Notes: generated by a model from the letters alone, not told the origin. A stretch of DNA of 32,000 nt from Promethearchaeum syntrophicum (GCF_008000775.2 NZ_CP042905.2:3660001-3692000); one strand, 5' to 3'. Positions 2,878-29,467 are shown, counted from the stretch's first letter. Program-made: numbers and translations.

Positions 2878-5628
2878 TTATTTTTTAACTTGTTTTTTCG
2901 TTTCATCTTCAACTTGTTCTTTAGCTAGTTTTTTCGCTTGATCTTTGACTTGATCTTTAATTTGTTCTTTCATCGTTTCCTCAATATTTTCTTCAATATT
3001 CTTCTGAATCCCTTTGATTCTTTTCTCATTCTTTCTTTTTTTACGAATAATTACCGTACTTACCGAGATCATAACTGCTCCTGAAGCTCCAGCGATTATA
3101 TATATTATCGTTGGATCTGGAGGATTCTCACCTTCTTCTTTGATGACAGCAAAATTTACAGTAATCTTTACAGATCCACCATTATCATCATGTAATGTGA
3201 AAATAATCGAAGTATTTCCATATTGATTAAGAACACTCATAAATAGAAAGGCGCTATTTGATTCATTGCTAATTGTGACTAAATCTTCATTATAAACTTC
3301 CACTGTCCAATATAAATCTCCCTCATCAGTTTCAAAATCTAATTGATATGGAGAAAGGTCTACGATAAATTGATCAAAATCTTCGTTCTGAGTCCAAGTA
3401 TCCAAAGATTGTAATTCTGACACATTAATTATGAATGGTCCTGAATTTATTATTTGAATAGTTCTTAGCATTGACTCAGTTGAATTTTCATAACCATCAA
3501 AAGCCCATACCTCAATGGATACTTCATCTCCAACTGAAAAACCATCTAGCGAGGAAAACTCATTCCCAACTCCAGAAAGTACTTCTATACCGTTTATACG
3601 CCATAAATAATAGTAATTCTCAGAATCACTGACATCATAGTCATTCCAACCATCTATTGTGACGACAAGTGTATTGTTTTGATAACATTGATCTATTGTA
3701 TGATTTCCTGTTATTGTCATTGTTGTAAAAGTGGGAAGTGAATTTGAAATAATTAGAGGGATAGTTGTATTTACCGGATCTCCCGAATCGTAGCCATCAA
3801 AAGGAGTCACTTCAACAATAATTATATCATTCATAACAAAGAAAGTAGAATCTAACGTATTTCCAATCTGACCGGAAATTTCAGTCCCATTTAGAAACCA
3901 ACGATACGAATAACCAGCCAAATGACCATCAGCATCAGTCCAGCCTGTAGGAATTGCAGTGAGATCAGATTCTGTATATGCAATTCCCGGAGTAATGGAA
4001 ACGCTGGTAACAGAGGGTCGTGTATTTAAAATAGTTAGAGGAATAGTAGAATTTACCGGATCTCCCGAATCGTATCCGTCAAACGGGGTTACTTCCACAA
4101 TGATTATATCATTCATAACAAAGAAATTAGAATCTAACGTAACTCCAAACTGACCAGAAATTTCTGTGCCATTTAGGAACCAACGGTAGGTATATCCAGC
4201 CAAATGACCATCAGCATCAGTCCAACCAGTAGGAATTGCAGTGAGAGCAGATTCTGTATAGGCAGTTCCCGGATTAATGGAAACACCGGTAATAGAGGGT
4301 GGTGTATTTGATATTATTAGAGGGATAGTAGTATTTACCGGATCTCCCGAATCGTAGCCATCAAAGGGAGTCACTTCAACGATAATTATATCATTTATAA
4401 CAAAGAAAGTAGAATCTAACGTATTTCCAATCTGACCGGAAATTATAGTCCCATTTAGAAACCAACGATAGATATATCCAGCCAAATGACCATCATCATC
4501 AGTCCAGCCTGTAGGAATTGCAGTGAGGTCAGATTCTGTATAGGCGGTTCCTGGAGTAATGGAAACAGTGGTAATAGAGGGTGGTGTATTGATTATTGTT
4601 ACATTATCCCATTTGAAACCTGTTGCATTATTTACTCCATCACCAAGATAAACTCGCACAGAAACTCGATCCCACATAAAATATCCAGTCGTTAATTGAT
4701 CGGAAAGACCCCATTGTACAACTGTTTCATTGATCCACCATTGAAAATACAATATTAAATCATCTCCATCGGGATCAACCCCTGTTCCACTCATTGTAGC
4801 ATTTAAAATGTCAGTTACATTAGCAGGATTTGGAGTTATTTCTACATCTAAGGTTCCCCATACAGGACCAGAATTACCGATTGTTTGATTATCCGATAGA
4901 ATTGTGCTGTTTAGTTCATAATCAGATACAGTAACGTTAACTCGAATCATATCCCATCTTGCAAAGGGTACTCCTAAAGTATCGGAGGTAGTCCATTGAA
5001 CAATAGTTCCATTAATTTCCCAACTATAATATAAAGTTGTGGGATCTCCATCAGGATCTGAAGGAGTACCACCAACCAAAGTTGCAGTTAGAATATCAGT
5101 AATTTCGGCAGGATCAGGTAATATAATTACAGTAGTTCCCCCCCATTCAGGAGCTGTATTTGAAATTGTGAGCTCGGTAGAATTTACCGCAATTCCATAT
5201 TCAAAACCATCATACGGAGTCACTTCAACAATGATTATATCATCCTTAACAAAGAAAGTAGAAGCTAATGTAGGTCCTGTCTGACCGGAAATTTCTGTAC
5301 CATTTAGAAACCAACGGTAGATATATCCGGGAGAATGACCATCATCATCAACCGAATTTACCGCAATTCCATATTCAAAACCATCATACGGAGTCACTTC
5401 AACAATGATTATATCATCCTTAACATAGAAGGTAGATGATAATGTAGAATCAGTCTCTCCCCCAATTTCAGTTCCATTTAGAAACCAACGGTAGATATAT
5501 CCGGGAGAATGACCATCATCATCAACCCAATCAGCAGGATTTGCAGTGAGAAGAGAGCCAGTATATGCTGGATCAGGGGTAATGGAAACTCCACTAATAG
5601 TAGGAGGCGTATTTGCGATTAAAAACAA
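2878..5628 (-). CDS. repeat-rich surface protein with C-terminal TM anchor; probably the C-terminal two thirds of a gene split from 5594..7564 by a frameshift
   Basis: ORF track, 916 aa. The annotated start is a TTG only two codons after an in-frame TAA, and there is no signal peptide. The body is tandem ~94-aa beta-rich units: type A (W[TV]D[DA]DGH..GY.YRWFLNG..I.G....VEVTP.DG) and two type B units (DPDGD..LY..W.IN). These are followed by a distinct ~110-aa domain, one TM helix (IIYIIAGASGAVMISVSTVII) and a K/E/Q-rich tail. Confidence 0.8.
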   Translation of the reverse strand: MFLIANTPPTISGVSITPDPAYTGSLLTANPADWVDDDGHSPGYIYRWFLNGTEIGGETDSTLSSTFYVKDDIIIVEVTPYDGFEYGIAVNSVDDDGHSPGYIYRWFLNGTEISGQTGPTLASTFFVKDDIIIVEVTPYDGFEYGIAVNSTELTISNTAPEWGGTTVIILPDPAEITDILTATLVGGTPSDPDGDPTTLYYSWEINGTIVQWTTSDTLGVPFARWDMIRVNVTVSDYELNSTILSDNQTIGNSGPVWGTLDVEITPNPANVTDILNATMSGTGVDPDGDDLILYFQWWINETVVQWGLSDQLTTGYFMWDRVSVRVYLGDGVNNATGFKWDNVTIINTPPSITTVSITPGTAYTESDLTAIPTGWTDDDGHLAGYIYRWFLNGTIISGQIGNTLDSTFFVINDIIIVEVTPFDGYDSGDPVNTTIPLIISNTPPSITGVSINPGTAYTESALTAIPTGWTDADGHLAGYTYRWFLNGTEISGQFGVTLDSNFFVMNDIIIVEVTPFDGYDSGDPVNSTIPLTILNTRPSVTSVSITPGIAYTESDLTAIPTGWTDADGHLAGYSYRWFLNGTEISGQIGNTLDSTFFVMNDIIIVEVTPFDGYDSGDPVNTTIPLIISNSLPTFTTMTITGNHTIDQCYQNNTLVVTIDGWNDYDVSDSENYYYLWRINGIEVLSGVGNEFSSLDGFSVGDEVSIEVWAFDGYENSTESMLRTIQIINSGPFIINVSELQSLDTWTQNEDFDQFIVDLSPYQLDFETDEGDLYWTVEVYNEDLVTISNESNSAFLFMSVLNQYGNTSIIFTLHDDNGGSVKITVNFAVIKEEGENPPDPTIIYIIAGASGAVMISVSTVIIRKKRKNEKRIKGIQKNIEENIEETMKEQIKDQVKDQAKKLAKEQVEDETKKQVKK
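3739..4584 (-). repeat. three tandem 282-bp (94-codon) coding repeat units, highly similar at DNA level
   Basis: Unit boundaries were read from the recurring PP/RP codons: gggtgg ending at 4584 and 4302, gggtcg ending at 4020. The landmark ggatctcccgaatcgta recurs at 3776, 4058 and 4340, giving an exact period of 282. A diverged fourth unit follows at about 3445-3738. Confidence 0.9.
5180..5527 (-). repeat. 2 x 174-bp direct duplication (partial repeat unit, 58 codons) inside the surface-protein gene
   Basis: gaatttaccgcaattccatattcaaaaccatcatacggagtcacttcaacaatgattatatcatcctta occurs at 5180 and 5354. ccatttagaaaccaacggtagatatatccgggagaatgaccatcatcatcaac ends at 5352 and 5526. In the protein this joins ...YGIAVNS directly to VDDDGHSPGYIYRWFLNG. 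Confidence 0.85.
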
Positions 5629-7564
5629 AATTTATTGATTGATTTTGGTAATAGGTCTTATTACATGTAATTTTAATGGTGTTTTCCCCCTCAGAGAAGC
5701 TGGAATTTACAGTAATCGATATATTATATTTACCATCCACTCCCCCCCCATTTACAGTATATTCACTAGCACCGATCCAATAGTGAATCGTAGCATCATT
5801 TATTGGATTTCCATTACTTGGTGTGTTCTCTTGTAGATCTTCGTAGTATACTGTGATGTTAAATTCTTCATCCGCAACATACAGCTTTGATACAGAATTA
5901 TTCTCAGGAGATATAATAGAGGTTGAAGTATTAGCAAATATGTATAGATTTTTCTCATCTAGGGATGCTTTTCCTTCGGTGTTATTCCACCAAGATTGAA
6001 GAGTATATAGACCATAAGTTGTGCCAACATTTGTACTTAGATCCCAAGAATCAAAAACTACTGAACTAACGCTAGTAACCGTTTTCTTCTCTGGTCCATA
6101 GACGGTTGTCCCATTAGGAAAGAAGATCTCCAGAAATACATCTCCCGATATTGATTCGCTGAAAGTTGCATTGGGTGTGATTACATCCTGATAATATGCA
6201 GTATTTGTATTCACACCAGATTTAAGTGTTTCCAAACCATTTCCCAAATTAGAGGAAGAGGAGTATAGGATCCAATTTCCATCGGTCGCTTTAGTATCAT
6301 AAACACTGACAATTTTTGATGACCCATTTAGAAATGTGTTATCTATCGCTTTTGATATGGAATCATTTTTCAAATCATAGGCAGTCCAGCTTGCGGGAAT
6401 GGTAAAATTCAACGTATTATTATTCAATCGGTGATCGAATGCAGTAAAATTGGCTTCGGATTCCCAATAAACGTCAGAACCGCTTTCAACCGTATAAGTA
6501 GTATTTGCAATCATGGATTTAGTATAATTTACTTGAGTACTATTAACTTCAAGGGCAAAATTATACCAATCCGAATTAAATGAATATTCAATTTGATTAT
6601 TGATTCCAGTATCCCCCGTTTTATTCCAAAACCCAGAATTGTTAGTCGGAATGTTAAGATTATCAAAAACTAGAGTATTATTGATATTAAGATTGATTTC
6701 AGAAGGAATTATATAAGTTTTATTTAAGGTTAGTCCAACTTTAAGACCATAATCATAAGGTAATTGACTAGTCCATCCACTTGGACCAAATTGCGTTAAA
6801 GAAATTGAATTATTAAGATCACCACCACTATCACTTCTGTAAAACCAATCTCCTCTAAAAGTACTTTGACTCCCTAATTTATATAATCCAATAAACCAAT
6901 TATTCTTATAAGTTTCTGAAGTATCTAAATAAGTTGAAGAATTTAATTGAAAAGTTGAATTACTCCATTGCTGATCAGTATCGCTAACAAAAATACTTCC
7001 AATTTCTTCAATGGAAGAATAATCAGGTAATAATTCATCTGTGCAATTAAAAAGAACAATTCCTAAATAACCACTATCCCACCCCGTTTGTTGTTTCACA
7101 AAAAAACTTGCATTATTGATGAAGCAACTTGTAGATGTAGTAAAAGATGCTACATAGTAAAGATCATCAATGTATTGAGATCCAGCTTGGGTTTCTTCAA
7201 CAATTAATGTATGATTAGAAATAGTTAAATCGGAGATGCTCAGATTCACATATGATGTAGAAAAATCTGTTGAATTAGGAGCAGGAACTATTAATGAATT
7301 TGAAATTTGATTAATACTTCTTGTAGTCAAATTATTATAAGCTTGATGGAGAGTAACATTAATATTATCAACTTGTCCTGAAGAATTTGTTACATAATCT
7401 TGGGAAAATGGTGAAACTTCAATTAAATTTTCTTTAAAATTAGAAATATTTTCAGGATTTTCATTTAAATTATTTTTTTTAAAATCGTTGTTTTGAGTAT
7501 ATACTAAATTTCCCGCTAAAATTATTAGAATTATAATGATTACGCTTTTCTTCTTCATAAACAT
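5594..7564 (-). CDS. secreted/anchored N-terminal head module of a giant surface protein; paralogous to the first ~500 aa of 7695..13232
   Basis: ORF track, 656 aa. N-terminal signal/anchor MFMKKKSVIIIILIILAGNLVYTQ, with no C-terminal anchor. About 34 N-x-S/T sequons by manual count. It aligns along its length with the N-terminus of the 1851-aa ORF and includes a 100-aa identical block. Its stop lies 35 nt inside the next ORF, in the +1 frame. Confidence 0.8.
   Translation of the reverse strand: MFMKKKSVIIIILIILAGNLVYTQNNDFKKNNLNENPENISNFKENLIEVSPFSQDYVTNSSGQVDNINVTLHQAYNNLTTRSINQISNSLIVPAPNSTDFSTSYVNLSISDLTISNHTLIVEETQAGSQYIDDLYYVASFTTSTSCFINNASFFVKQQTGWDSGYLGIVLFNCTDELLPDYSSIEEIGSIFVSDTDQQWSNSTFQLNSSTYLDTSETYKNNWFIGLYKLGSQSTFRGDWFYRSDSGGDLNNSISLTQFGPSGWTSQLPYDYGLKVGLTLNKTYIIPSEINLNINNTLVFDNLNIPTNNSGFWNKTGDTGINNQIEYSFNSDWYNFALEVNSTQVNYTKSMIANTTYTVESGSDVYWESEANFTAFDHRLNNNTLNFTIPASWTAYDLKNDSISKAIDNTFLNGSSKIVSVYDTKATDGNWILYSSSSNLGNGLETLKSGVNTNTAYYQDVITPNATFSESISGDVFLEIFFPNGTTVYGPEKKTVTSVSSVVFDSWDLSTNVGTTYGLYTLQSWWNNTEGKASLDEKNLYIFANTSTSIISPENNSVSKLYVADEEFNITVYYEDLQENTPSNGNPINDATIHYWIGASEYTVNGGGVDGKYNISITVNSSFSEGENTIKITCNKTYYQNQSINFVFNRKYASYY
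6270..6571 (-). repeat. 302-bp block identical but for 1 nt (6416 a vs 12078 g) to 11932..12233
   Basis: Direct by-eye comparison at constant offset 5662. Flanking paralogous sequence is clearly more diverged. Confidence 0.9.
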
Positions 7565-7694: not shown

Positions 7695-10600
7695 TTAATC
7701 TCGTGGAATAAATAATGCGTCTTCTAACGTTTCAGCATATTGTTCATTAATCAAAGCATTATCGTGATCACCATTTGCTCTTAATTTAGCTGATTCTGCT
7801 TTATAATCTTGGATAATTTTTTCAAGATTTGGAATTTTTCTAAACAGTGCTTCAATTTTTAAGGATAATTTAATTGCATTTTCAGCATCCCCAACTTGAC
7901 AATATGTGTTTAGAGCCTGCTGATAAACAACTAAGCAATTGACATAATCTTCCTTTTCTTCTGCTTCTTTGGCATATTCTAAATATTGTTGTGTTTTTAA
8001 TTTTAATTCAGAAATTCGTGTAGCAGTTTCTTGTATATAAACTTCATTACTATCCTCTATAACATCTTGAATTTCATCCAAAACGAAATGATATTTTTTT
8101 ATATTTTCCGATTCAGATACTTGCCCAAATTTAAAGAGAAAATTTGAAATTATAAGTAATTTTGTTGTTAGTTCATTCCTTAATACCATATCTTGAGATT
8201 TTTGTGCTTTTTTCCATTTGGATAATAATTTCTTACGCTGGTTAACTAAATGATCTTTAGTTAGGAAATCTTCAGCAGTAGGAACTTGTTTAGTCTGCTT
8301 TTTGATTTCCGCAACCTTCTTGGTAAACTCTTTAATTAAAATTTCAACATCTAGGAAACCTAATTTAAATAAATTATGTGCTGCGTCAAGGACTTTTCCA
8401 TATTCGGCTAATGCATTATTGAAATCTTTCATTTTTTCATATTTTTTTCCTTGTTTTTGGGATTGCTTAATTGTTGTTCGATATTTATCCACCGTTGTAG
8501 TAATAACAAGATTTCCATATTTTTTACCAGAAGAATCCATATTCCATTGGTATGAAATGATTTCAGCTATTTCATAAAATCTAATACTATTATTGAAATC
8601 TTGCTCTTTTAATGCACTTCTGGCTTGTTTATCAAGACTTTTAATTTCCTTTTTAGCTTCTTTTATATCTTTGAATTTTTTTGCAGTAATTGTTTCCCCA
8701 GATATTTCAGTTGTTATGGTGATACTCTGCATTAAGGAACTTAAAATTACTTCTCTTTCTGCTGAAGAAAGAACTAACAATTCCTTCAATAAATCTTGTT
8801 TTTCTTGATCGGTTTTATTCGGAACCACTGAAACTCTTTCAGCTAATGTTCGAATTTCCTGATCGCTCAATTCTTGTTCTTCAAGTTTCTCGATTTTTAT
8901 GGGAATTAAAACTTTGCATTCAAGCAAATCATTGATAGCTAGAACAATTTCAGCAGATTCTTTTTTGGTTTGTTCAATAGAATCTGCAAGCAATTGGGCA
9001 AGAAATAGAAATTTTCTGTCTTCCGAAACCAGCCCTCGAGCAATCGATAGAATTTGTTTACAAAAGGAATTTCTTAAATTCTTTTCCAATTTTGAGTCTA
9101 CAGTTATTTCATGTGGAAGGATAACTGAAGTATGCAAAACCTCATCGATTAAATCCGGTGTATCTTGGAATATATTTAATTGTCCTTTCCACATTTGTAA
9201 CGTTAATTGGTAGTGTGCTTCAAATTTTGCAATAAATTTAGCAAGATTTCTTTTCATATACGGAGATGCAGGTTTACCTAAAACAAGAGTAACCCTAATA
9301 TAATCCCCATCAGAAAAGAGTAAAACCTTATCTCCATAGGATAATTCATTTAAGCTTTTATGGGTTTTTAGCTCTTTCCCAAAAGACTGAACAGCAGTTA
9401 AAAATCCACTAATTAAATCTGGATCGAGCATTTCGTCCGCAAATGATTTGAAAAATATGCTGGTTCCTGTATTTTTATAGATAATCATCAAATGTTGTAA
9501 ATTAATAGCGTCATCAAAGATAGTTGCTGATGACATTATCATATCGGTGTACTTTAATTTGCGAGGTGCAATTATTTTCTTTTGAACAAGCACTGCAGAT
9601 CCAATTGCTAAAGCAAAAATTCCAATAGCCCAGATAGCCCAAGGAGGGAGAATAATAGGTTTAGTTACTATAATTGATACCTCATATGAATCTTCAGCAA
9701 TTCCAACTTGTGAACCGTCATATTCAATTATAATTTGTAAACTTTCAAAATTTCCTGTTGGTACTTGGAACCTGAAGGTCACATTACCTGAAGAATCTGT
9801 TGTCGCAAAAATTGGGATAAATTCAGAATTGTTGGTACTTAATTTGATTTGAGCGAATGCTAGAGGCACTTGGGAAGTCCCATTTGGATATGTAAGTGTA
9901 AAAGTTAGATTAACATAAGCCCCTTCTTCTATAGATTCAGGTAGATATTGGGTAAATGTAATAATCACTTCAGGAATTACACTTATATTAAATGTTAAAA
10001 AAGAATCATGATAGGTGTCCGAAGAAAAGTCTACTGTAATTATATAACTTCCAATTTCTAGATCACTAGAATTTAATTCCCAATAATAAATTCCATTTGA
10101 TTCCCAATTTGCATCATAATCGTTTCCATTAAAATGCAATAAAGAAATAGAAGCTCCACTAATTCTTTGATTATTTATCGTATCATTATAAAGTATGCCA
10201 ATTTCTAAATTATGAGATTCATAAACAGAATAATTACCACTGGTTTCAATAACGGTGATCAAATCTTGTTGAATCGAATCTATTACTGCTTCGGTAATTG
10301 CATCATTTATAGTTAAATTAAATGAATAGGTTGCATTTTCATAATTAAACAGAGAGGTTATTATTGTTATATTATGAATATCAGATGATAAACTCGGGAG
10401 AGTAATATTTCCAATATTTTTTCCCAAACCGATATTCCATGCAATAGATTGAGAAACCGAATTCCCATCAATGAATACATAATAAGTGAAAAGACCATCA
10501 TCATTATAATTTAAAGTTGTCATGATTACTTCTGTATCCACAAAATCAAAAGAGATCTGTAATTGTGGGTTATGCTGATAGAGAGAAAAATTATGTGCGG

Positions 10601-13232
10601 AAACTTCTAATAAAGTATGATCTATTAATTCAACATTTTGAATCTCAGTGGAATTTCCTTCAACATAAAATGGAACTTCTAATGTGCTATAATCATAATT
10701 TGGGGCATGAGATATATTCAGAATTACGCTTTTATCACCATAATCTAACCCATTAAGACTTATATTCACCCAATACTCCCCGTCACTAATTTCAATCATT
10801 TTATAATTCCAATCACCAGTATCCCATGTTGTTGACGGATTAGAACCATTATATACTGTCAACGCGGAATGTGGAACACCTGTAAGATCTTGAGAATTAC
10901 TCGTGTCAGTAATGTGAATTCTAATAGTTGCATTTAAACCACTTGCTCTGGAAATGGTTTCATTAACGCTAATAAAAGTGATTTGGGTTTGAGCTAAAGT
11001 GACTGTAATATTAAAATCAAAAATTTGCGTTTTAAAATCAGTATATGTAATTGAAAAATTACAAAGATATTCACCGACATCTAGTTGGGAAGTATTGAGG
11101 TTAATTGAATAATTCCCACCAGTAAGATCTTCAAAACCCCATTCTATGTTAGGATTTAAAGTTTTTTCTAATATATTAGCTCCAATTATAGGATTATCGT
11201 TAATTTCTGTGTAATTCAGATAATAAGATGCATTGTGACCTTTAATAACATCTAAAGTAGAATTTGCAGTTAGTTCTTGTAATTTTGTATCAGAAACGAT
11301 ATAGAAATTATAGTCGAATGTGTAATTCATATAGTCTGTTTTATTTATTGTAATAGGAATAATTTTAAGCCCATTTGCAAGAAAGTCTGAAGGAGATATT
11401 GTTATATTGTAAGTTTCATCAGCATTATTTTGAACTTGACTTTGCCAACCATCACCTAAATTAAGATTATACCCGATCGTTGCCCCTGTTATATTATCTA
11501 AATTAAATTCATCAAAATATTCTAACGTAATATTAAAAGCGTTTGAATTGTCCAATATTTCAGTTTCATTAGTATTTTGAATAGAATAAGTTGTTTCTCC
11601 TGCTATTGTAATAAATGAATCGATGATAGCAATATCTGTTGCATTATTCCATGTAACTTGTACTTTATGATCGCCATATGTAGTTAAATTCTCAGAAATG
11701 ACCCAATTATTTAGAGATACAAATGAAGAATCAACCACTGATGTTAATTTTGAGAACACCAGTTCCTTATTAAAGGAATTATTATATACACTAAGGTTTA
11801 CATTTCCAGTTACAGGTTTTGAGAAAGTTGCATTAAATTCAAGTGTTTCATTGGAATAAACAATTCCGGTTTCCTTTCCTCCAACTCCAATTTTTACATC
11901 AGTTAATAGATTTGTTGAGTTAGAATACAAAATCCAATTTCCATCGGTCGCTTTAGTATCATAAACACTGACAATTTTTGATGACCCATTTAGAAATGTG
12001 TTATCTATCGCTTTTGATATGGAATCATTTTTCAAATCATAGGCAGTCCAGCTTGCGGGAATGGTAAAATTCAACGTGTTATTATTCAATCGGTGATCGA
12101 ATGCAGTAAAATTGGCTTCGGATTCCCAATAAACGTCAGAACCGCTTTCAACCGTATAAGTAGTATTTGCAATCATGGATTTAGTATAATTTACTTGAGT
12201 ACTATTAACTTCAAGGGCAAAATTATACCAATCAGCTTCAAATACATAATTTAATAGATTATTAATTCCAGCATCACCAGATTCATTCCAAAATCCTGAA
12301 TTATTAGTCGGAATGTTAGGATTATCATAAACAAGAGTATTATTGATTTTAAGACGTATTTCAGAAGGAGTTGTGTACGTTTTATTTAAGCTTAGTCCAA
12401 TTCTAGCTCCATAATCAAGACCGAGTTGGCTACTCCATCCACTTCCACCTTGTTGTGTCAATGCTATTGAGTTATTTCCATCTCCACCACTATCACTTCG
12501 ATAAAACCAATCACCTCTGAAAGTACTTTGATCTGGTAACTTATATAACCCAATAAACCAGTTATTATTGTAAGTTTTTGAACTGTCTAAAAAGGTTGTA
12601 GAATTTAGTTGAAAAGTTGAATTACTCCATTGTTGATCAGTATCATTTACAAAAATGCTACCAATTGTAGGTGCCGATGCGATGCTATAATTAGGTAATA
12701 ATTGATTAGATGAATTAAAAAGAACAACCCCTAAATTGCCATCATTCCATCCAAGTTGTTTTTTAACAAAAAAACTAGCATTTTTAATATAACAACTTGT
12801 GGGAGTGGTAAAAGAGGTAACATAAATAAGATCATCAATATATTGAGAACCAGCTTGGGTTTCTTCAATAGTTAATGTATGATTACTAATTGCAATATTA
12901 TTGATGCTTAGATCAACATAAGATGAATTAAAATCTGTTGCATTAGGTGCTGGTACTGTAAATGAATTAGAGATTTCATCAATGGTAATTACAGTAGAAT
13001 TATGATAAGCTTGGTGTATCGTAAGATTAATGTTGTTAGTTTGTCCTGATGAGTTTGCTGCGTAATCTTGTAATTTGGGAATATCATTAAATGGATTATT
13101 AGTAGTTTCTTGGCCATCATTTTTTATAAAACTATAGTTGAGGAGAGGACCAATTATAAACATGCAGAGAAATATAATGGTGATAACAATCTGCAATTTT
13201 TTGATTTCTTTTTTAAACGTTTTTTTAATCAT
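7695..13232 (-). CDS. giant type-I-like transmembrane protein: N-terminal signal anchor, ~1160-aa sequon-rich ectodomain, TM helix, ~630-aa cytoplasmic region (Roadblock/longin-like module + helical TPR/MIT-like repeats)
   Basis: ORF track gives 1851 aa from TTG 13250; I prefer ATG 13232 (MIKKTFKKEIKK..., parallel to the paralog start MFMKKK). Anchor: LQIVITIIFLCMFIIGPLL. Second TM: ILPPWAIWAIGIFALAIGSAVLV, about 9585-9665. The cytoplasmic part begins SSATIFDDAINLQHLMIIYKNTGTSIFFKSF..DPDLISGFLTAVQSFGKEL...LSYGDKVLLFSDGDYIRVTLVLGK... Confidence 0.85.
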   Translation of the reverse strand: MIKKTFKKEIKKLQIVITIIFLCMFIIGPLLNYSFIKNDGQETTNNPFNDIPKLQDYAANSSGQTNNINLTIHQAYHNSTVITIDEISNSFTVPAPNATDFNSSYVDLSINNIAISNHTLTIEETQAGSQYIDDLIYVTSFTTPTSCYIKNASFFVKKQLGWNDGNLGVVLFNSSNQLLPNYSIASAPTIGSIFVNDTDQQWSNSTFQLNSTTFLDSSKTYNNNWFIGLYKLPDQSTFRGDWFYRSDSGGDGNNSIALTQQGGSGWSSQLGLDYGARIGLSLNKTYTTPSEIRLKINNTLVYDNPNIPTNNSGFWNESGDAGINNLLNYVFEADWYNFALEVNSTQVNYTKSMIANTTYTVESGSDVYWESEANFTAFDHRLNNNTLNFTIPASWTAYDLKNDSISKAIDNTFLNGSSKIVSVYDTKATDGNWILYSNSTNLLTDVKIGVGGKETGIVYSNETLEFNATFSKPVTGNVNLSVYNNSFNKELVFSKLTSVVDSSFVSLNNWVISENLTTYGDHKVQVTWNNATDIAIIDSFITIAGETTYSIQNTNETEILDNSNAFNITLEYFDEFNLDNITGATIGYNLNLGDGWQSQVQNNADETYNITISPSDFLANGLKIIPITINKTDYMNYTFDYNFYIVSDTKLQELTANSTLDVIKGHNASYYLNYTEINDNPIIGANILEKTLNPNIEWGFEDLTGGNYSINLNTSQLDVGEYLCNFSITYTDFKTQIFDFNITVTLAQTQITFISVNETISRASGLNATIRIHITDTSNSQDLTGVPHSALTVYNGSNPSTTWDTGDWNYKMIEISDGEYWVNISLNGLDYGDKSVILNISHAPNYDYSTLEVPFYVEGNSTEIQNVELIDHTLLEVSAHNFSLYQHNPQLQISFDFVDTEVIMTTLNYNDDGLFTYYVFIDGNSVSQSIAWNIGLGKNIGNITLPSLSSDIHNITIITSLFNYENATYSFNLTINDAITEAVIDSIQQDLITVIETSGNYSVYESHNLEIGILYNDTINNQRISGASISLLHFNGNDYDANWESNGIYYWELNSSDLEIGSYIITVDFSSDTYHDSFLTFNISVIPEVIITFTQYLPESIEEGAYVNLTFTLTYPNGTSQVPLAFAQIKLSTNNSEFIPIFATTDSSGNVTFRFQVPTGNFESLQIIIEYDGSQVGIAEDSYEVSIIVTKPIILPPWAIWAIGIFALAIGSAVLVQKKIIAPRKLKYTDMIMSSATIFDDAINLQHLMIIYKNTGTSIFFKSFADEMLDPDLISGFLTAVQSFGKELKTHKSLNELSYGDKVLLFSDGDYIRVTLVLGKPASPYMKRNLAKFIAKFEAHYQLTLQMWKGQLNIFQDTPDLIDEVLHTSVILPHEITVDSKLEKNLRNSFCKQILSIARGLVSEDRKFLFLAQLLADSIEQTKKESAEIVLAINDLLECKVLIPIKIEKLEEQELSDQEIRTLAERVSVVPNKTDQEKQDLLKELLVLSSAEREVILSSLMQSITITTEISGETITAKKFKDIKEAKKEIKSLDKQARSALKEQDFNNSIRFYEIAEIISYQWNMDSSGKKYGNLVITTTVDKYRTTIKQSQKQGKKYEKMKDFNNALAEYGKVLDAAHNLFKLGFLDVEILIKEFTKKVAEIKKQTKQVPTAEDFLTKDHLVNQRKKLLSKWKKAQKSQDMVLRNELTTKLLIISNFLFKFGQVSESENIKKYHFVLDEIQDVIEDSNEVYIQETATRISELKLKTQQYLEYAKEAEEKEDYVNCLVVYQQALNTYCQVGDAENAIKLSLKIEALFRKIPNLEKIIQDYKAESAKLRANGDHDNALINEQYAETLEDALFIPRD
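11932..12233 (-). repeat. partner copy of the 302-bp near-identical block at 6270..6571
   Basis: See 6270..6571. It encodes the shared peptide (A/S)DWYNFALEVNSTQVNYTKSMIANTTYTVESGSDVYWESEANFTAFDHRLNNNTLNFTIPASWTAYDLKNDSISKAIDNTFLNGSSKIVSVYDTKATDGNWILYS. Confidence 0.9.
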
Positions 13233-13470
13233 AGTAGATTTCACTTCCAAAGAGCTCGATGTTCAAATGGCGAACTCTTAAAATATTCTATAATAATATT
13301 TCTTTTCAAAAATCATATATATTTTTTGTAAGGAGAGGTAATTGATATAAAAGAAATTCGATGCTATAAAAATGTGGTGCAAAAAAAAACCAAATCTTAA
13401 AATAATGAAAATGTCAAATGAGTCTAAAAATAAAAATAGAGCACTTTTAAAATTCAAAAGGATTATCATT

Positions 13471-13480
13471 AAAAAAAAAA
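13471..13480 (-). terminator. oligo-T (T10) tract immediately after the acdB-like stop codon
   Basis: A10 on the plus strand abuts the stop at 13481-13483 (minus). Confidence 0.5.
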
Positions 13481-14191
13481 TTAGAATTTTAAAATAATAC
13501 GAGCATCAACGGCTTTTAATCCGTCTTTGTAAATAAAAATTGGATTCAAATCCATTTCTGAGATTTCTTCGTGCTTGTATGCCAAATCTGCAATTTTTAT
13601 CAAGAGTTTTTTCAGAGATTCTAAATCTGCCTTATCATTTCCGCGGTATCCATCTAAAATCTTGAACCCTTTTATTTCATGAATCATTTCATCAGCATCA
13701 AATTCAGATATTGGGGCAATTCGAAAAGAAACATCTTTCATAATTTCAACTAAAACGCCACCGATCCCAAACATAACGGTTGCACCAAACTGAGGGTCCT
13801 GTAAAGATCCTACAATAATCTCTGTTATTGGTTTTGGTGCCATTTCTTGAATAGATATTGCTTTTAGCGGATCATTATCACAATCAATTTTCATTAATTC
13901 ATCATAAGCTTGTTTAGCAGATTCATTATCAGAAATATTCAATTTCACAGCCCCCGAGTCTGATTTATGTACTATTTTATCACTCATCAATTTCATAACT
14001 ATAGGAAAACCAGTATTTTTACAAGCATTTAAAACAGCCTTTTCTCCCTCTTTTGCAGGAACTAACACTTGTTTAGGAATTGGAATATCAATTACTTCTA
14101 AAAGTTCTTTAGATTCAAATTCTGTTAAAATTTTACGATTTGCTTTTTTTGCCTTAGAAATTATTTCATCAACGGTTGGCATAAGCTTCAT
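13481..14191 (-). CDS. acdB: acetate--CoA ligase (ADP-forming) beta subunit / ATP-grasp (ATP-grasp_5) domain protein
   Basis: ORF track, 236 aa. LTEFESKELL..IPIPK, PIVMKL.S..I.HKSD.GAVKLNI, EIIVG...DPQFG..VMFG.GGV.VE...DV.FR.AP, DGYRG. This is the typical layout of archaeal ACD beta/succinyl-CoA-ligase-like ATP-grasp domains. No alpha subunit is present in the window. Confidence 0.8.
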   Translation of the reverse strand: MKLMPTVDEIISKAKKANRKILTEFESKELLEVIDIPIPKQVLVPAKEGEKAVLNACKNTGFPIVMKLMSDKIVHKSDSGAVKLNISDNESAKQAYDELMKIDCDNDPLKAISIQEMAPKPITEIIVGSLQDPQFGATVMFGIGGVLVEIMKDVSFRIAPISEFDADEMIHEIKGFKILDGYRGNDKADLESLKKLLIKIADLAYKHEEISEMDLNPIFIYKDGLKAVDARIILKF

Positions 14192-14277
14192 TAGAAATAA
14201 TCGAAAAAAAAAGTTACTTTTTCTTATTTTAAAAAACAGTGAAAAATTACTTTTAAAATATAGAAGGAATTTGAGTC

Positions 14278-15309
14278 TTACTTGCTAGCTTGTTTGAAAA
14301 ATAACTCAATTCCAATCATGTTAAAAGCATCCCTTACATTTTCACCGGATTTAGCGGATGATTCTAAAAAGGAACAACGCAATATTGAGCCTAACACGCT
14401 CCCTTCATTAGTTGAAACCACTCGAGACTCATTTAAGTCGATCTTATTTCCGAGCAATATTATTGGAATATCCGGTAAAACGGCTCTAATATCCTTGATC
14501 CAATTCGAAACAGATTCGAAGGTTTTACGATTAGTGATGTCATATGCAATAAAAGCTGCGTTTGCTCCGCGATAATATGCTTTTCGCACTCGTTGAAAAA
14601 ATTTTTGACCCGCCAAGTCCCAGATCATAAAATTCAGAATCTTATCTTCAAATCCCTGAATGTAATATTCTTGATTAGTAATTGAAATCCCCAAAGTAGG
14701 TTTGTATTCAGAATAAAACTGATTGGTTACAAATCTATTTATTAAAGTGGTTTTCCCAACACTAGGGTCTCCTAAAACAATTAATTTAAATCTAAGATTT
14801 CTCTTTTTCTTCAATTCATTTCTTATTTGATCTTCATTTACTTTCAAATCTTTGATTTTTTTAGCTGACAGTGAAAGTTCGGGACCTAATTGAAGATTTG
14901 GAACATTTAGAGAGATATTTTGTGTTTCCCCTTCAAGTATTTTCGATATTTTCTCAGCGATTAGGAAACTATAAGGTAATACATTATTCATCTCGACATC
15001 ATAGCGAAATACTGATAATAAGATAGCTTCAGTACCAGCTTCAAGAAAAATTAAACGGTAATCTTCAACATCAAAAGTGCCAATTCCATATGATCCTGCA
15101 TACTCTTTAGTTATTCGTTTTAAAGTAGTTTCCACTATCCCGGCAATTGCCCCATAAATTTCTTCAATATTTCTCTCTTCTTCTGGGGGAGTTTTCTTTT
15201 GTAATAATAATCCATCTCTGTTAAAAATGTAGACAGCTTCAATATATTCTTTGGTAACTACAAAATAATTATCCAATAAAATATCAAGCTGCTCATTAAT
15301 ATTTGCCAT
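14278..15309 (-). CDS. Roadblock/LC7 (MglB-like) domain fused to a Rab/Ras-like small GTPase
   Basis: ORF track, 343 aa. C-terminal half carries G1 GDPSVGKT, G2 PTLG, G3 WDLAGQ, G4 NKID, G5 SAK, and the Rab-like stretch YYRGANAAFIAYDITNRKTFESVSNWIKDI. The N-terminal ~125 aa has a Roadblock-like alpha-beta-beta-alpha-beta-beta-beta-alpha pattern (IEAVYIFNRDGLLL ... IAGIVETTLKRI ... YRLIFLEAGTEAILLSVF). There is no C-terminal Cys prenylation motif. Confidence 0.9.
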   Translation of the reverse strand: MANINEQLDILLDNYFVVTKEYIEAVYIFNRDGLLLQKKTPPEEERNIEEIYGAIAGIVETTLKRITKEYAGSYGIGTFDVEDYRLIFLEAGTEAILLSVFRYDVEMNNVLPYSFLIAEKISKILEGETQNISLNVPNLQLGPELSLSAKKIKDLKVNEDQIRNELKKKRNLRFKLIVLGDPSVGKTTLINRFVTNQFYSEYKPTLGISITNQEYYIQGFEDKILNFMIWDLAGQKFFQRVRKAYYRGANAAFIAYDITNRKTFESVSNWIKDIRAVLPDIPIILLGNKIDLNESRVVSTNEGSVLGSILRCSFLESSAKSGENVRDAFNMIGIELFFKQASK

Positions 15310-15397: not shown

Positions 15398-18337
15398 CTA
15401 AAGGTGAAGCTGTTTTCTAAAATAGATTTTTAGAATCTCAACACACCCGATAGTTACTATAATAGAAGGAATAACCCAAAGCCAATCTACTGCATCTAAA
15501 GGAATAACAGAGAAAATATTTCCAAGTCCTCTCCAGAAATACAGTAAAATTGTCAACACAACCGAGATCCCTACAGAGAATAGCATAGGTTTATTCTTAA
15601 AGAAGCCGATTTTAAAGAGAGAATTGTATTCACTACGACAATTGAATGCATTACTCATTTCTGCGACCATCATAACCAAAAAGGTAACAGAACGAGCTTT
15701 CCAAAGAATATATCGATCTAATAAAAGTGCCTCTTCCATATCCTCAACAGGAACTCCACTTTCTAAAAGATGCTGATAAAGTCCAGATTCGCTATCATAT
15801 TTTATTATAAGATTTGTTTTAACACCTTCAGTATCAATTAAATCTTCAAATTCATAAATTAAATCTCTAAAACCATCAGGAACCTCAGTGGGCATGAATC
15901 CTGTAACTCTATCATATAATATATAGATCCCTAAGATTAACGCCGTTAATATCACACCTCGATACAACATTGTTATAATGAAATTTTTCGTTAGAAGCGG
16001 TTCATCTATTGGTCGGGGTTTTTGTTTCATTAATGTTGGATCATAAGGATCGAAACCCAAAGCGACAGCTGGAGCACCATCTGTGACAAGATTAATCCAT
16101 AATAATTGGGTAGCCACTAGAGGAGGTGGTAGGAAGAATGAAGCGATGAATAAAACTAAAACTTCCATTACATTTGAAGAAAGTAGATATTGGATGAATT
16201 TTTTGATATTATCATAAATACCACGACCTTCTTCAACAGCATGAACAATTGTTGCAAAATTATCATCTGCCAAAACCATGACAGCAGCTTCTTTAGAAAC
16301 ATCAGTTCCCGTAATTCCCATAGCCACACCAACATCTGCATTTTTCAATGCGGGAGCATCATTTACACCATCTCCAGTCATTGCAACAACAAATCCTTTA
16401 TTTTGCAGCGCTTTTACAATATTTTGTTTGTGTTCAGGACTAACTCGTGCAAAAACATGACAATCAGAAATATCATCATCTGACATATCCGGAATATCTT
16501 TTCCTTGATGCGTTATTTCGCCTGGATTAACCATACCTAATTCCCGGGCAATTGCAGTAGCTGTAATTAAATTATCCCCTGTAATCATTTTTACTCCGAT
16601 TCCAGCTTGTTTACATTCTTTAATTGCAACTTTTACTTCATCTCTAGGAGGATCTATCATAAATTGCATTCCTATAAAGGTCAAATCCTTCTCCATTTCT
16701 TCAACTTCAACTTTTATTCCTTCAGCATCTCGATAAGCAAATCCTAATCCCCGTAAGGCTTCATCAGCTTTCTGTTCATATGCTTCTAAAATCTGTTTCT
16801 TATCTTCTGCTGTTATAGGTCGATTTTGACCATCAATTTGAATATTGTTACATAAATCCAATAAAATTTCCGTAGCACCCTTAACATATGCAATTTTTTT
16901 ACCTTCAATTTCATGGATTACTGTCATACGTTTACGAGTTGAATCAAAAGGTATCTCGTCTAATCTTGGAAATTTCTTTTGATAAGTCGCATGTTCCATT
17001 CCAGCTTTCCAAGCAGATGTTATTAAACATCCCTCAGTCGGATCACCAAAGGTATTCCATTTCTTTGTCTTTTCGTCTTGATTTAATCTTGCATTATTAC
17101 ATAACAATCCGATTTTTAAAGTTAAATCTAAATCAGGAATAGAAGCAGTTTGAATTTCACTTCCCTCTAATAAGATTTTCCCTTCAGGTGCATATCCAGA
17201 ACCTGTGAAATCATATATTTTACCTCCAGCCCAAGCAGATCTTACTGTCATTTCATTTTTTGTTAAAGTTCCGGTTTTATCAGAACATATGACACTAGTA
17301 CATCCTAATGTTTCTACAGAATGTAATTTTTTAATGATTGCATTTTGTTCTGACATTCGTGTAACTCCAATAGCTAAACACACTGAAACAACAGCAGGTA
17401 AACCTTCAGGAATTGCAGCAACAGCCAAAGCAACACCAGCTAATATGGATTCCATAATTCCAAAGCTAGCACCAAACCATAAGAAGCGAGCAATATAAAC
17501 AAGAGAAACTGCTACACAAATCAATAATATAATCTTTCCTAACCATACTCCAAAATCTTCAAGATTTTTTTGAAGAGGGGTCATTTTATCTTCAGCTTCG
17601 GAAATCATAGTTGCAATTTTTCCAACTTCAGTTTTCATTCCTGTTTCGGTAATGATTGCTTTTCCTCTACCATATGTAGCCAAAGTTGAAGAAAAGACCA
17701 TATTTTTCCTTTCCGCTAATGGACATTCCACATCTTCAATTATATTTGATTGCTTATTTACTGGAACGCTTTCTCCAGTTAAAGCAGCTTCTTCGACTTT
17801 TAGATTAGATTGCTCGATTATTCTGCCATCGGCTGGTAACATATCACCTTCGTGGAGAACTATCAAATCTCCTGGTACTAATTCACGTGCCTTGACTGTA
17901 ATTTCTTTTCCATCGCGTATAACTTGAGATTCCGGTGCAGCAAAATTTTTTAATGCTTCTATTGCTTCGTCCGCTTTACCCTCTTGAATAAATCCAATAA
18001 TTGCGTTTAAAACTACAATTACAGCAATTACGATCCAATCATCACCTAAGGATCCGTATTCAATGAAATTGAAAACAGCTGAGATAATTGCTGAAAAGAT
18101 TAAGATGTAGATTAATACATCCTTAAATTGATCAAGAAAAACTTTCCATCTAGGTCGTTTTTCCTCAGCTTTTAATTCATTAGGTCCGTATTTTTCAAAA
18201 CGAGTTTTTACTTCTGCACTGGATAATCCGCTATTACTTGATGTTGATAAATTTTTCTCAACCTCCTCTTTAGAGAGGGTAAACCAATTAATTTCGGGTT
18301 CAATTGGTATTTCTTCAACAATTTCTTGATTTTCCAT
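15398..18337 (-). CDS. P-type ATPase, P2A (SERCA-like) cation/Ca2+ transporter
   Basis: ORF track, 979 aa. Motifs: TGES, PEGLP (TM4), CSDKTGTLTKN, KGATE, DPPR, MITGDN, MTGDGVNDAPALKNADVGVAMG, and the TM6 signature LLWINLVTDGAPAVALG. Confidence 0.95.
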   Translation of the reverse strand: MENQEIVEEIPIEPEINWFTLSKEEVEKNLSTSSNSGLSSAEVKTRFEKYGPNELKAEEKRPRWKVFLDQFKDVLIYILIFSAIISAVFNFIEYGSLGDDWIVIAVIVVLNAIIGFIQEGKADEAIEALKNFAAPESQVIRDGKEITVKARELVPGDLIVLHEGDMLPADGRIIEQSNLKVEEAALTGESVPVNKQSNIIEDVECPLAERKNMVFSSTLATYGRGKAIITETGMKTEVGKIATMISEAEDKMTPLQKNLEDFGVWLGKIILLICVAVSLVYIARFLWFGASFGIMESILAGVALAVAAIPEGLPAVVSVCLAIGVTRMSEQNAIIKKLHSVETLGCTSVICSDKTGTLTKNEMTVRSAWAGGKIYDFTGSGYAPEGKILLEGSEIQTASIPDLDLTLKIGLLCNNARLNQDEKTKKWNTFGDPTEGCLITSAWKAGMEHATYQKKFPRLDEIPFDSTRKRMTVIHEIEGKKIAYVKGATEILLDLCNNIQIDGQNRPITAEDKKQILEAYEQKADEALRGLGFAYRDAEGIKVEVEEMEKDLTFIGMQFMIDPPRDEVKVAIKECKQAGIGVKMITGDNLITATAIARELGMVNPGEITHQGKDIPDMSDDDISDCHVFARVSPEHKQNIVKALQNKGFVVAMTGDGVNDAPALKNADVGVAMGITGTDVSKEAAVMVLADDNFATIVHAVEEGRGIYDNIKKFIQYLLSSNVMEVLVLFIASFFLPPPLVATQLLWINLVTDGAPAVALGFDPYDPTLMKQKPRPIDEPLLTKNFIITMLYRGVILTALILGIYILYDRVTGFMPTEVPDGFRDLIYEFEDLIDTEGVKTNLIIKYDSESGLYQHLLESGVPVEDMEEALLLDRYILWKARSVTFLVMMVAEMSNAFNCRSEYNSLFKIGFFKNKPMLFSVGISVVLTILLYFWRGLGNIFSVIPLDAVDWLWVIPSIIVTIGCVEILKIYFRKQLHL

Positions 18338-29318: not shown

Positions 29319-29467
29319 TTTTACAAAACCTTTAGTTGAGAAATCCACCAACACGTAATATATCCAAAAAATTATTGATTTAAATATTCACCGATTATAA
29401 AACCATACAATTCCTTTATTAAAATCAAAAATTTTTAATTTTTAGGTTGATTTTATAAATTAGAGAT

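Follow-up and report, generated by a model that had tools for sequence, protein, structure and literature searches.

A giant surface protein of Promethearchaeum syntrophicum with a predicted Roadblock/longin-fold cytoplasmic module, a candidate docking platform for small GTPases

We analysed a 32,000-nucleotide stretch of the Promethearchaeum syntrophicum MK-D1 genome (GCF_008000775.2, NZ_CP042905.2:3660001-3692000; hereafter the window, with positions counted from its first letter) around DSAG12_03900, a gene for a giant surface protein that lies near a gene for a Roadblock-Rab-like GTPase. The original prediction had proposed that the cytoplasmic tail of the giant protein carries a Roadblock- or longin-type domain, which could recruit this GTPase to the membrane. 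The NCBI record lists DSAG12_03900 as a 'hypothetical protein' of 1845 amino acids (aa) with an ATG start at 13232; the open reading frame (ORF) considered here begins slightly upstream. Its predicted topology is as follows.

7695-13250, minus strand: gene for a giant type-I membrane glycoprotein (DSAG12_03900, QEE18062.1, WP_147664989.1), 1851 aa from a TTG at 13250
13131-13193, minus strand: signal anchor or signal peptide near the N-terminus, aa 20-40, with Kyte-Doolittle 19-mer scores reaching 2.64
9654-13130, minus strand: ectodomain of about 1160 aa, rich in N, S and T, with 64 N-x-S/T sequons
9582-9653, minus strand: single transmembrane helix, aa ~1200-1223, assigned by hydrophobicity and followed by KKIIAPRKLK

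The signal anchor is preceded by a K-rich N-terminus, and the transmembrane helix is followed by a K/E-rich cytoplasmic tail of 628 aa (aa 1224-1851). Given the contrast in N-x-S/T sequons, 64 in the 1160-aa ectodomain versus 2 in the 628-aa tail, and the K/R residues directly past the transmembrane helix, an N-out/C-in glycoprotein topology is indicated. Together, these features show DSAG12_03900 to encode a giant single-pass surface glycoprotein, as judged from its sequence. The ectodomain itself had no match in Pfam or in PDB sequence searches.

We then modelled the tail with AlphaFold2. A model of aa 1236-1455, built on a 38-sequence alignment and referred to below as the module, reached a pLDDT (predicted local distance difference test) of 89 and a pTM (predicted template modelling score) of 0.78. 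It contains helices at model positions 2-15, 42-55 and 95-117 and strands at 16-23, 28-34, 66-70, 73-79 and 83-89; a short helix/strand linker and then a winged-helix-like unit come after this first domain. When the entire tail was modelled (pLDDT 81), another winged helix appeared, along with approximately 320 aa of paired helices that match TPR proteins such as LGN/Pins. The resulting domains are listed here.

9195-9542, minus strand: juxtamembrane Roadblock/longin-fold domain, aa 1237-1352, alpha-beta-beta-alpha-beta-beta-beta-alpha in the predicted structure
8901-9068, minus strand: first winged-helix-like domain, aa 1395-1450, from the predicted structure; belongs to the conserved family module
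8682-8864, minus strand: second winged-helix-like domain, aa 1463-1523, predicted as three helices with a beta hairpin
7713-8666, minus strand: C-terminal TPR-like alpha-solenoid, aa 1529-1846, matching the LGN/Pins TPR structure 5a7d_C at E 1.9e-5 and, weakly, Pfam TPR_12

When the module model was compared with the PDB by Foldseek, all 17 matches at E<=1e-3 were longin- or Roadblock-domain proteins, namely the sigma subunits of AP2, AP1 and AP3, zeta- and delta-COP, the C-terminal domains of RagA and RagC, LAMTOR, Fuzzy and MON1-CCZ1. The E-value was 9e-5 for AP2 sigma (6owo_S), and the template modelling score TMt was 0.66 for AP3 sigma. MglB and the crystal structure of MK-D1 Roadblock2 (9jq8) lay just past the threshold (E 1.5e-3 to 2.3e-3), as did TRAPP; LAMTOR, the Rag C-terminal domains, MglB and MK-D1 Roadblock2 were all matched with a Foldseek probability of 1.00 and a TMt of 0.5-0.6. 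A Roadblock domain has been defined by a five-stranded sheet, a central helix and N- and C-terminal helices (Tran et al. 2024, PMC10933270), and the predicted tail domain has both this topology and similarity to solved Roadblock structures. The longin topology is beta-beta-alpha-beta-beta-beta-alpha-alpha; the top Foldseek neighbours are longins, yet in the model a helix precedes the first strand and a single long helix (positions 95-111 plus 113-117) closes the domain. Fold-level similarity in the model does not tell Roadblock from longin, and we call the domain 'Roadblock/longin-fold' because its best structural neighbours are longins.

Sequence comparisons did not recognise this fold. Searches of the tail against Pfam, NCBIfam and the PDB (phmmer and profile search) returned no match identifying a Roadblock or longin domain; the domain alone gave nothing in Pfam or NCBIfam at E<=10, Robl_LC7 (PF03259) included, and a profile of the tail family found no Roadblock chain among PDB sequences. 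The original prediction had described a 1851-aa ORF with a signal anchor, an ectodomain of ~1160 aa, one transmembrane helix and a tail of ~630 aa, all of which we recovered (anchor at aa 20-40, helix at aa ~1200-1223, tail of 628 aa). The AlphaFold2 model likewise reproduced the beta-hairpin/helix/three-strand/helix pattern that it had read from the sequence, with the four motifs it quoted located at aa 1251-1347 (nucleotides 9210-9500). Its assignment of the first cytoplasmic domain as Roadblock or longin held at the level of the fold, by Foldseek on a predicted structure, and found no counterpart in sequence profiles. The models show the tail as a predicted multi-domain scaffold composed of a Roadblock/longin fold, two winged helices and a TPR-like solenoid.

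DSAG12_03900 is one of three surface-protein genes arranged in tandem, and the only one with a Roadblock/longin tail. A 656-aa secreted ORF (5594-7564, minus strand) is a paralog of the N-terminal half of the giant ectodomain and has neither transmembrane helix nor tail. It is 61% identical in aa sequence over aa 58-649 and 83% identical in DNA over 1139 bp, near-identical stretches included, which suggests a recent duplication or gene conversion between the adjoining genes. The third, a 916-aa surface protein (2878-5628, minus strand), has PKD-like repeats, a C-terminal transmembrane helix and only a short K/E-rich tail; its gene contains tandem DNA repeats of 282 bp (three copies, 87% identity, 3738-4590) and 174 bp (two copies, 5180-5531).

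The module is not peculiar to this locus. A profile of the Roadblock/longin domain plus winged helix matched 5285 clusters at E<=1e-3, 1383 at E<=1e-10 and 249 at E<=1e-30, and the module typically lay close to the C-terminus of proteins of more than 1000 aa. Among 202 members analysed, 153 had enough upstream sequence, and 142 of these (93%) showed a transmembrane-like segment no more than 60 aa upstream of the module. The protein ended within 30 aa past the module in 94 of the 202 and continued for more than 150 aa, the pattern of the giant protein, in 86. Many small 'transmembrane helix plus module' proteins on contigs of about 1 kb are fragments of giant proteins (the 253-aa P0120, for instance, clusters with the 1333-aa P0221), and metagenome length statistics for the family are therefore biased downward. 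All reliably named members come from Asgard archaea (Lokiarchaeia/Promethearchaeota, Helarchaeota, Sigynarchaeota and Hodarchaeota). Two members carry bacterial labels, one in a Zixiibacteriota bin (L008, QNAH01000273.1; tail 61-63% identical to MK-D1) and one in a Deferrimicrobium bin (P0193; 40%); both contigs are probably mis-binned Lokiarchaeia rather than bacterial members of the family. No Pfam domain covered the module in the members checked, ten diverse ones among them. Across 80 species, identity to MK-D1 was 49-66% for the tail versus 26-44% for the ectodomain. The strongest family-wide motif, DPxLISGFLxAxxSFGKE, corresponds to the central helix and its C-terminal end. In Roadblock proteins the central helix region mediates dimerisation (Tran et al. 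2024, PMC10933270), and by analogy the signature would sit on a dimerisation interface. These comparisons show that the module defines a very large and, by its sequence, unannotated family.

Some members of the family are soluble. Two of them, P0106 and P0136, correspond to the entire tail, from the Roadblock/longin domain through the winged helices to the TPR-like region, and share 38% identity with each other. Upstream of their genes, on the same strand and separated from them by 18 and 26 bp, lie genes for longin-Arf-like GTPases of 623 and 632 aa, which match Arf and SRPRB models. That such tight spacing is kept at 38% identity is the best evidence, drawn from gene order, that the module family may work with small GTPases. 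These two GTPases and a further Arf-like GTPase of 319 aa, encoded one gene further upstream of the soluble tail paralog on L158, carry an N-terminal NPRL2/FLCN-like 'HFDPIIGPK' longin motif (L158:3009-7275, L163:4076-7302); long C-terminal extensions are a further feature of the 623- and 632-aa proteins. Standalone module proteins of 206 aa were found in Lokiarchaeota and Helarchaeota (L087:6001-7740 and L089:6001-7741, also L090 and L091). About 10 bp past each of these genes lies one whose 369-aa product is helical and TPR-like, with a winged-helix-like segment at its end. This arrangement resembles the tail architecture divided between two genes; by phmmer, the 369-aa protein showed no homology to the TPR-like region of the tail.

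Upstream of DSAG12_03900 the window holds the following genes.

14278-15309, minus strand: Roadblock-Rab-like GTPase, 343 aa (QEE18064.1, WP_147664993.1), two genes upstream of the giant gene on the same strand
14905-15309, minus strand: Roadblock domain of this GTPase, aa 1-135, from the ortholog profile and the published RG label
14278-14796, minus strand: Rab/Ras-like G domain, aa 172-343, G1-G5 intact, no C-terminal cysteine
13481-14191, minus strand: ADP-forming acyl-CoA synthetase beta subunit (DSAG12_03901), ATP-grasp_5 by Pfam, matching 4xyl_B at E 2e-61
15398-18337, minus strand: type IIA (SERCA/PMR1-like) Ca2+ P-type ATPase, fourth member of a conserved four-gene block

The G domain of the GTPase matched Pfam Ras at E 1.3e-47, and its top PDB matches were a Thorarchaeota Rab (7ezb, the best), Rab6, Rab43 and Rab11. 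The translation contains G1 (GDPSVGKT), G2 (the T in YKPTLG), G3 (WDLAGQ), G4 (NKID) and G5 (SAK). The C-terminus (...ELFFKQASK) is free of cysteine and offers no geranylgeranylation motif, and by its sequence the protein is Rab-like and not a canonical Rab. Its N-terminal 150 aa had no Pfam match in the window protein. A word-index search with this domain found only two homologs, and orthologs were drawn from syntenic loci. Robl_LC7 (PF03259) was matched, at E 3.4e-6 at best, by four of ten aligned sequences, which comprised eight syntenic orthologs, P0030 and the window domain; the last of these gave no match. The ortholog profile covered CvnB5, a Roadblock protein (3leq, E 0.02), in an end-to-end alignment and also hit the Roadblock/LC7 structure 9jue (E 0.81). 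Tran et al. 2024 (PMC10933270) list WP_147664993.1 in their supplement under the label 'RG' (Roadblock-GTPase), so the fusion is real and already published. The same survey counts 74 small GTPases in MK-D1, 26 of them fused to Roadblock or longin domains, and reports that they lack terminal cysteines or a lipid anchor, that their function and membrane targeting are unknown, and that their genes generally lie outside operons with Roadblock or longin genes (PMC10933270).

Conservation of the neighbourhood was evaluated in a species-representative genome scan, which yielded 80 Promethearchaeota loci; the 34 with at least 7.9 kb upstream of the giant gene were used for neighbour counts. The Roadblock-GTPase gene lay between the acyl-CoA synthetase beta gene and the Ca-ATPase gene in 15 of the 34, and the Ca-ATPase was also present at most of the 34. 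Seen from the GTPase, 66 metagenome loci comprised 40 with an adjacent ATP-grasp gene, 12 too short to judge and 14 without one (40 of 54 evaluable), and four of these 14 were distant paralogs. Wherever a metagenome GTPase locus had enough flank, the giant gene with its tail was present (8 of 8). Beyond the four-gene block, collinearity of the flanks with the window was absent in all but a congener, and the block is therefore an island of conserved order. In a congener contig (L092:4404-7504, ~85% identity), the Ca-ATPase gene between MoCF and the Roadblock-GTPase has been replaced by other ORFs, one of 446 aa; the GTPase, ATP-grasp and giant genes remain together. A search through 1.1 Mb of flanks found no further family members and no extra Ras-like genes. 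Pure-chance adjacency was rejected given the recurrence of the same orthologous arrangement in dozens of species, and a co-transcribed operon given T-tracts past each stop codon and the opposite orientation of the GTPase gene in most relatives.

The other claims of the original prediction concerned this neighbourhood. That the protein two genes upstream fuses a Roadblock domain to a complete Rab/Ras-like G domain was confirmed by PF03259 in orthologs, the CvnB5 alignment, the RG label and Pfam Ras, and the T-rich tracts it had noted between genes were found. Synteny in relatives, whose absence it had named as refuting, turned out to be real but partial: the GTPase is at 15 of 34 genome loci and 40 of 54 metagenome loci, is absent from the remaining 19 genomes and lies mostly on the opposite strand. 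Its overall interpretation retains the fold, the RG neighbour and partial synteny, and lacks a sequence relation of the tail domain to Roadblock/LC7 or to the Roadblock domain of the GTPase.

Elsewhere in the window we noted a family-B DNA polymerase whose intein bears a LAGLIDADG homing endonuclease (22885-27153, plus strand; Pfam DNA_pol_B, Intein_splicing, LAGLIDADG_3) and a 724-aa peptidase C25 (gingipain-like) protein (27180-29354, minus strand; Pfam E 3.5e-65).

What might the tail do? Our preferred reading, to which we assign a probability of roughly 0.4, is that it serves as a docking platform for GTPases at the membrane. The tail would act as a membrane-fixed platform of the Ragulator, MglB or SRX type and would hold soluble partners at a membrane site marked by the ectodomain. 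To our knowledge, every characterised Roadblock/longin platform docks a GTPase or works in membrane traffic. For this reason, and because Asgard GTPases lack lipid anchors and two independent subfamilies keep GTPase genes adjoining, small GTPases would be the most plausible clients. In the orthologous group of the giant protein the leading candidate would be WP_147664993.1, bound through Roadblock-type dimerisation; if the platform reading holds, we put this particular neighbour at about even odds of being the partner. A wider claim appears doubtful to us, namely that a widespread Asgard family of single-pass receptors uses the juxtamembrane module to dock small GTPases without lipid anchors, Roadblock-Rab-like here and longin-Arf-like for the soluble paralogs, as an outside-in forerunner of Ragulator-Rag and SRX-SR-beta.

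Several observations weigh against GTPase docking. The fold is assigned from predicted structure throughout. An hhalign comparison of the tail family with the GTPase Roadblock alignment gave a probability of 0.2%, that is, no sequence-profile relation, although as to a tail-GTPase heterodimer we read this null as neutral, neither for nor against. A fused G domain occurred in none of the 202 family members. At the locus the tightest neighbour is DSAG12_03901 (an 'acetate--CoA ligase family protein' at NCBI), which lies between the giant and GTPase genes; its orthologs are directly upstream of the giant gene on the same strand in 33 of 34 genomes. The GTPase gene is absent from the locus in 19 of the 34, including Lokiarchaeum ossiferum (the locus only being considered), and 14 of the 15 that carry it have it on the other strand; the window, Harpocratesius (L065) and close relatives (L083, L092, L093, L165) are the only cases with both genes on one strand. 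Since T-tracts follow each stop codon, separate transcription units are favoured and co-transcription is unlikely. In other contexts, nine closer Roadblock-GTPase homologs and four distant, probable paralogs had no family member nearby, and no GTPase gene lay within 6 kb of the module gene in subfamilies P0183, P0185/P0181, P0201 and P0176. The block also holds a metabolic enzyme subunit and a SERCA/PMR1-type pump, so that conservation of order alone is no proof of a functional link; as the ATP-grasp and Ca-ATPase genes are equally or more constant, the block may be inherited gene order without function.

The alternative that survives best, possible if not our favoured one, is that the Roadblock/longin domain mediates self-association only. 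As Roadblock proteins typically form homodimers, it would bring copies of the surface protein together as dimers or clusters; the winged helices and TPR region would bind partners other than GTPases (such as cytoskeleton or envelope-assembly factors), and gene order would be inherited without function, the unrelated metabolic and ion-pump genes of the block being in keeping with this. Asgard Roadblock proteins crystallise as homodimers (9jq8; Tran et al. 2024, PMC10933270), and the motif that stays invariant across the family on the dimerisation helix points to a shared partner, perhaps the protein itself, over a locus-specific one. Whether or not the locus carries the GTPase, the tail is ~52% identical to that of MK-D1, which also counts against GTPase docking, and the standalone module proteins pair with a TPR-like protein and not with a GTPase. 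Harder to reconcile with self-association alone are the soluble tail paralogs, which keep an operon-like position behind Arf-like GTPases at 38% identity, and the GTPase gene itself, which adjoins the ATP-grasp/giant pair in 40 of 54 evaluable loci despite scrambled outer flanks.

We regard it as improbable that the tail is instead a sorting or adaptor device, in which a sigma-adaptin-like longin, ESCRT-II-like tandem winged helices and TPR repeats couple the protein to ESCRT or to vesicle and protrusion machinery. The top Foldseek matches are indeed AP2, AP3 and AP1 sigma and zeta-COP, tandem winged helices follow the Roadblock/longin domain, and MK-D1 makes vesicles and protrusions; moreover, Asgard multidomain proteins combine longin, TPR, immunoglobulin-like and helix-turn-helix (HTH)/PCI domains with ESCRT parts (Makarova et al. 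2024, PMC11188069). The Foldseek E-values of sigma adaptin and Roadblock proteins, however, are only about tenfold apart, and scans of the giant protein found no ESCRT, Vps28-C or adaptin-appendage domain. Nor were there ESCRT genes in the Pfam-annotated window or in about seven subfamily contexts, the 80 genome and 66 metagenome loci having been screened with window proteins only. Archaeal winged helices are commonly DNA-binding, and the two predicted in the tail could make the protein a membrane-tethered regulator of the ToxR/CadC one-component type with the Roadblock/longin domain as sensor or dimeriser, but this is highly improbable given the lack of a DNA-binding HTH family match in Pfam or NCBIfam, the 320 aa of TPR-like repeats that follow the winged helices, and the thousands of members on giant ectodomains, unusual for transcription factors.

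The genomes of Asgard archaea hold dozens of genes for Rab-, Arf- and Rag-like GTPases, whose regulators could not be matched from genome layout (Tran et al. 2024, PMC10933270). The module family places a predicted Roadblock/longin fold directly beneath the membrane on large surface proteins, with two independent and deeply conserved GTPase neighbourhoods, and thereby offers concrete candidate receptor-GTPase pairs in a cultured organism. Eukaryotes use membrane-anchored Roadblock/longin platforms in Ragulator-Rag, TRAPP and SR. If GTPase docking by the tail is correct, membrane-anchored platforms of this kind for small GTPases would predate eukaryotic endomembranes; if it is not, the module still represents a large unannotated Asgard domain family deserving a name and a structure.

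Among known systems, one close parallel is Ragulator (LAMTOR1-5) with the Rag GTPases, a membrane-fixed Roadblock platform for Roadblock-carrying GTPases, as the neighbouring GTPase is here; LAMTOR and the RagA/C C-terminal domains are among the Foldseek matches (5y3a_G, 5x6v_F, 8fw5_D, 6u62_B). Ragulator, however, is held at the membrane by lipidated LAMTOR1 instead of an ectodomain-bearing transmembrane protein, Rag proteins combine a C-terminal Roadblock domain with a Rag-type G domain whereas the GTPase here has an N-terminal Roadblock domain and a Rab-like G domain, the tail has no sequence homology to this system, and its pairing with the GTPase is only proposed. MglB-MglA, a bacterial Roadblock GAP with its Ras-like GTPase, shows such a partnership in a prokaryote with the two genes side by side, and MglB, which is among the Foldseek matches (6hjm, 1j3w, 3t12), shares the topology with a C-terminal helix; it is nevertheless a small soluble homodimer encoded in the mglA operon, in contrast to a juxtamembrane part of an 1851-aa protein whose GTPase gene is mostly divergent. 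The SRX domain of SR-alpha is likewise a longin-type fold at the membrane and binds an Arf-like GTPase, SR-beta, but there the membrane-anchored partner is the GTPase. Longin SNAREs (Sec22, VAMP7, Ykt6) are membrane-anchored longin proteins too, yet they are tail-anchored with an N-terminal longin and no ectodomain, unlike the order of ectodomain, transmembrane helix and Roadblock/longin domain seen here.

Within Asgard archaea, the Roadblock/longin proteins and RG fusions surveyed by Tran et al. 2024 (PMC10933270) include the window GTPase among their 74 GTPases, and MK-D1 Roadblock2 (9jq8) matches the tail domain; WP_147664989 / QEE18062 is not listed there, and a transmembrane-anchored Roadblock/longin module is not described. 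Literature searches for transmembrane Roadblock/longin proteins in Asgard archaea, or for the accession numbers, returned no description. What is new here, relative to the literature searched, is the predicted architecture of ectodomain, transmembrane helix, Roadblock/longin domain, winged helices and TPR-like repeats, together with a large family lacking a Pfam model; in its design the giant protein appears as a variant on the known Roadblock/longin platforms and not as a new category.

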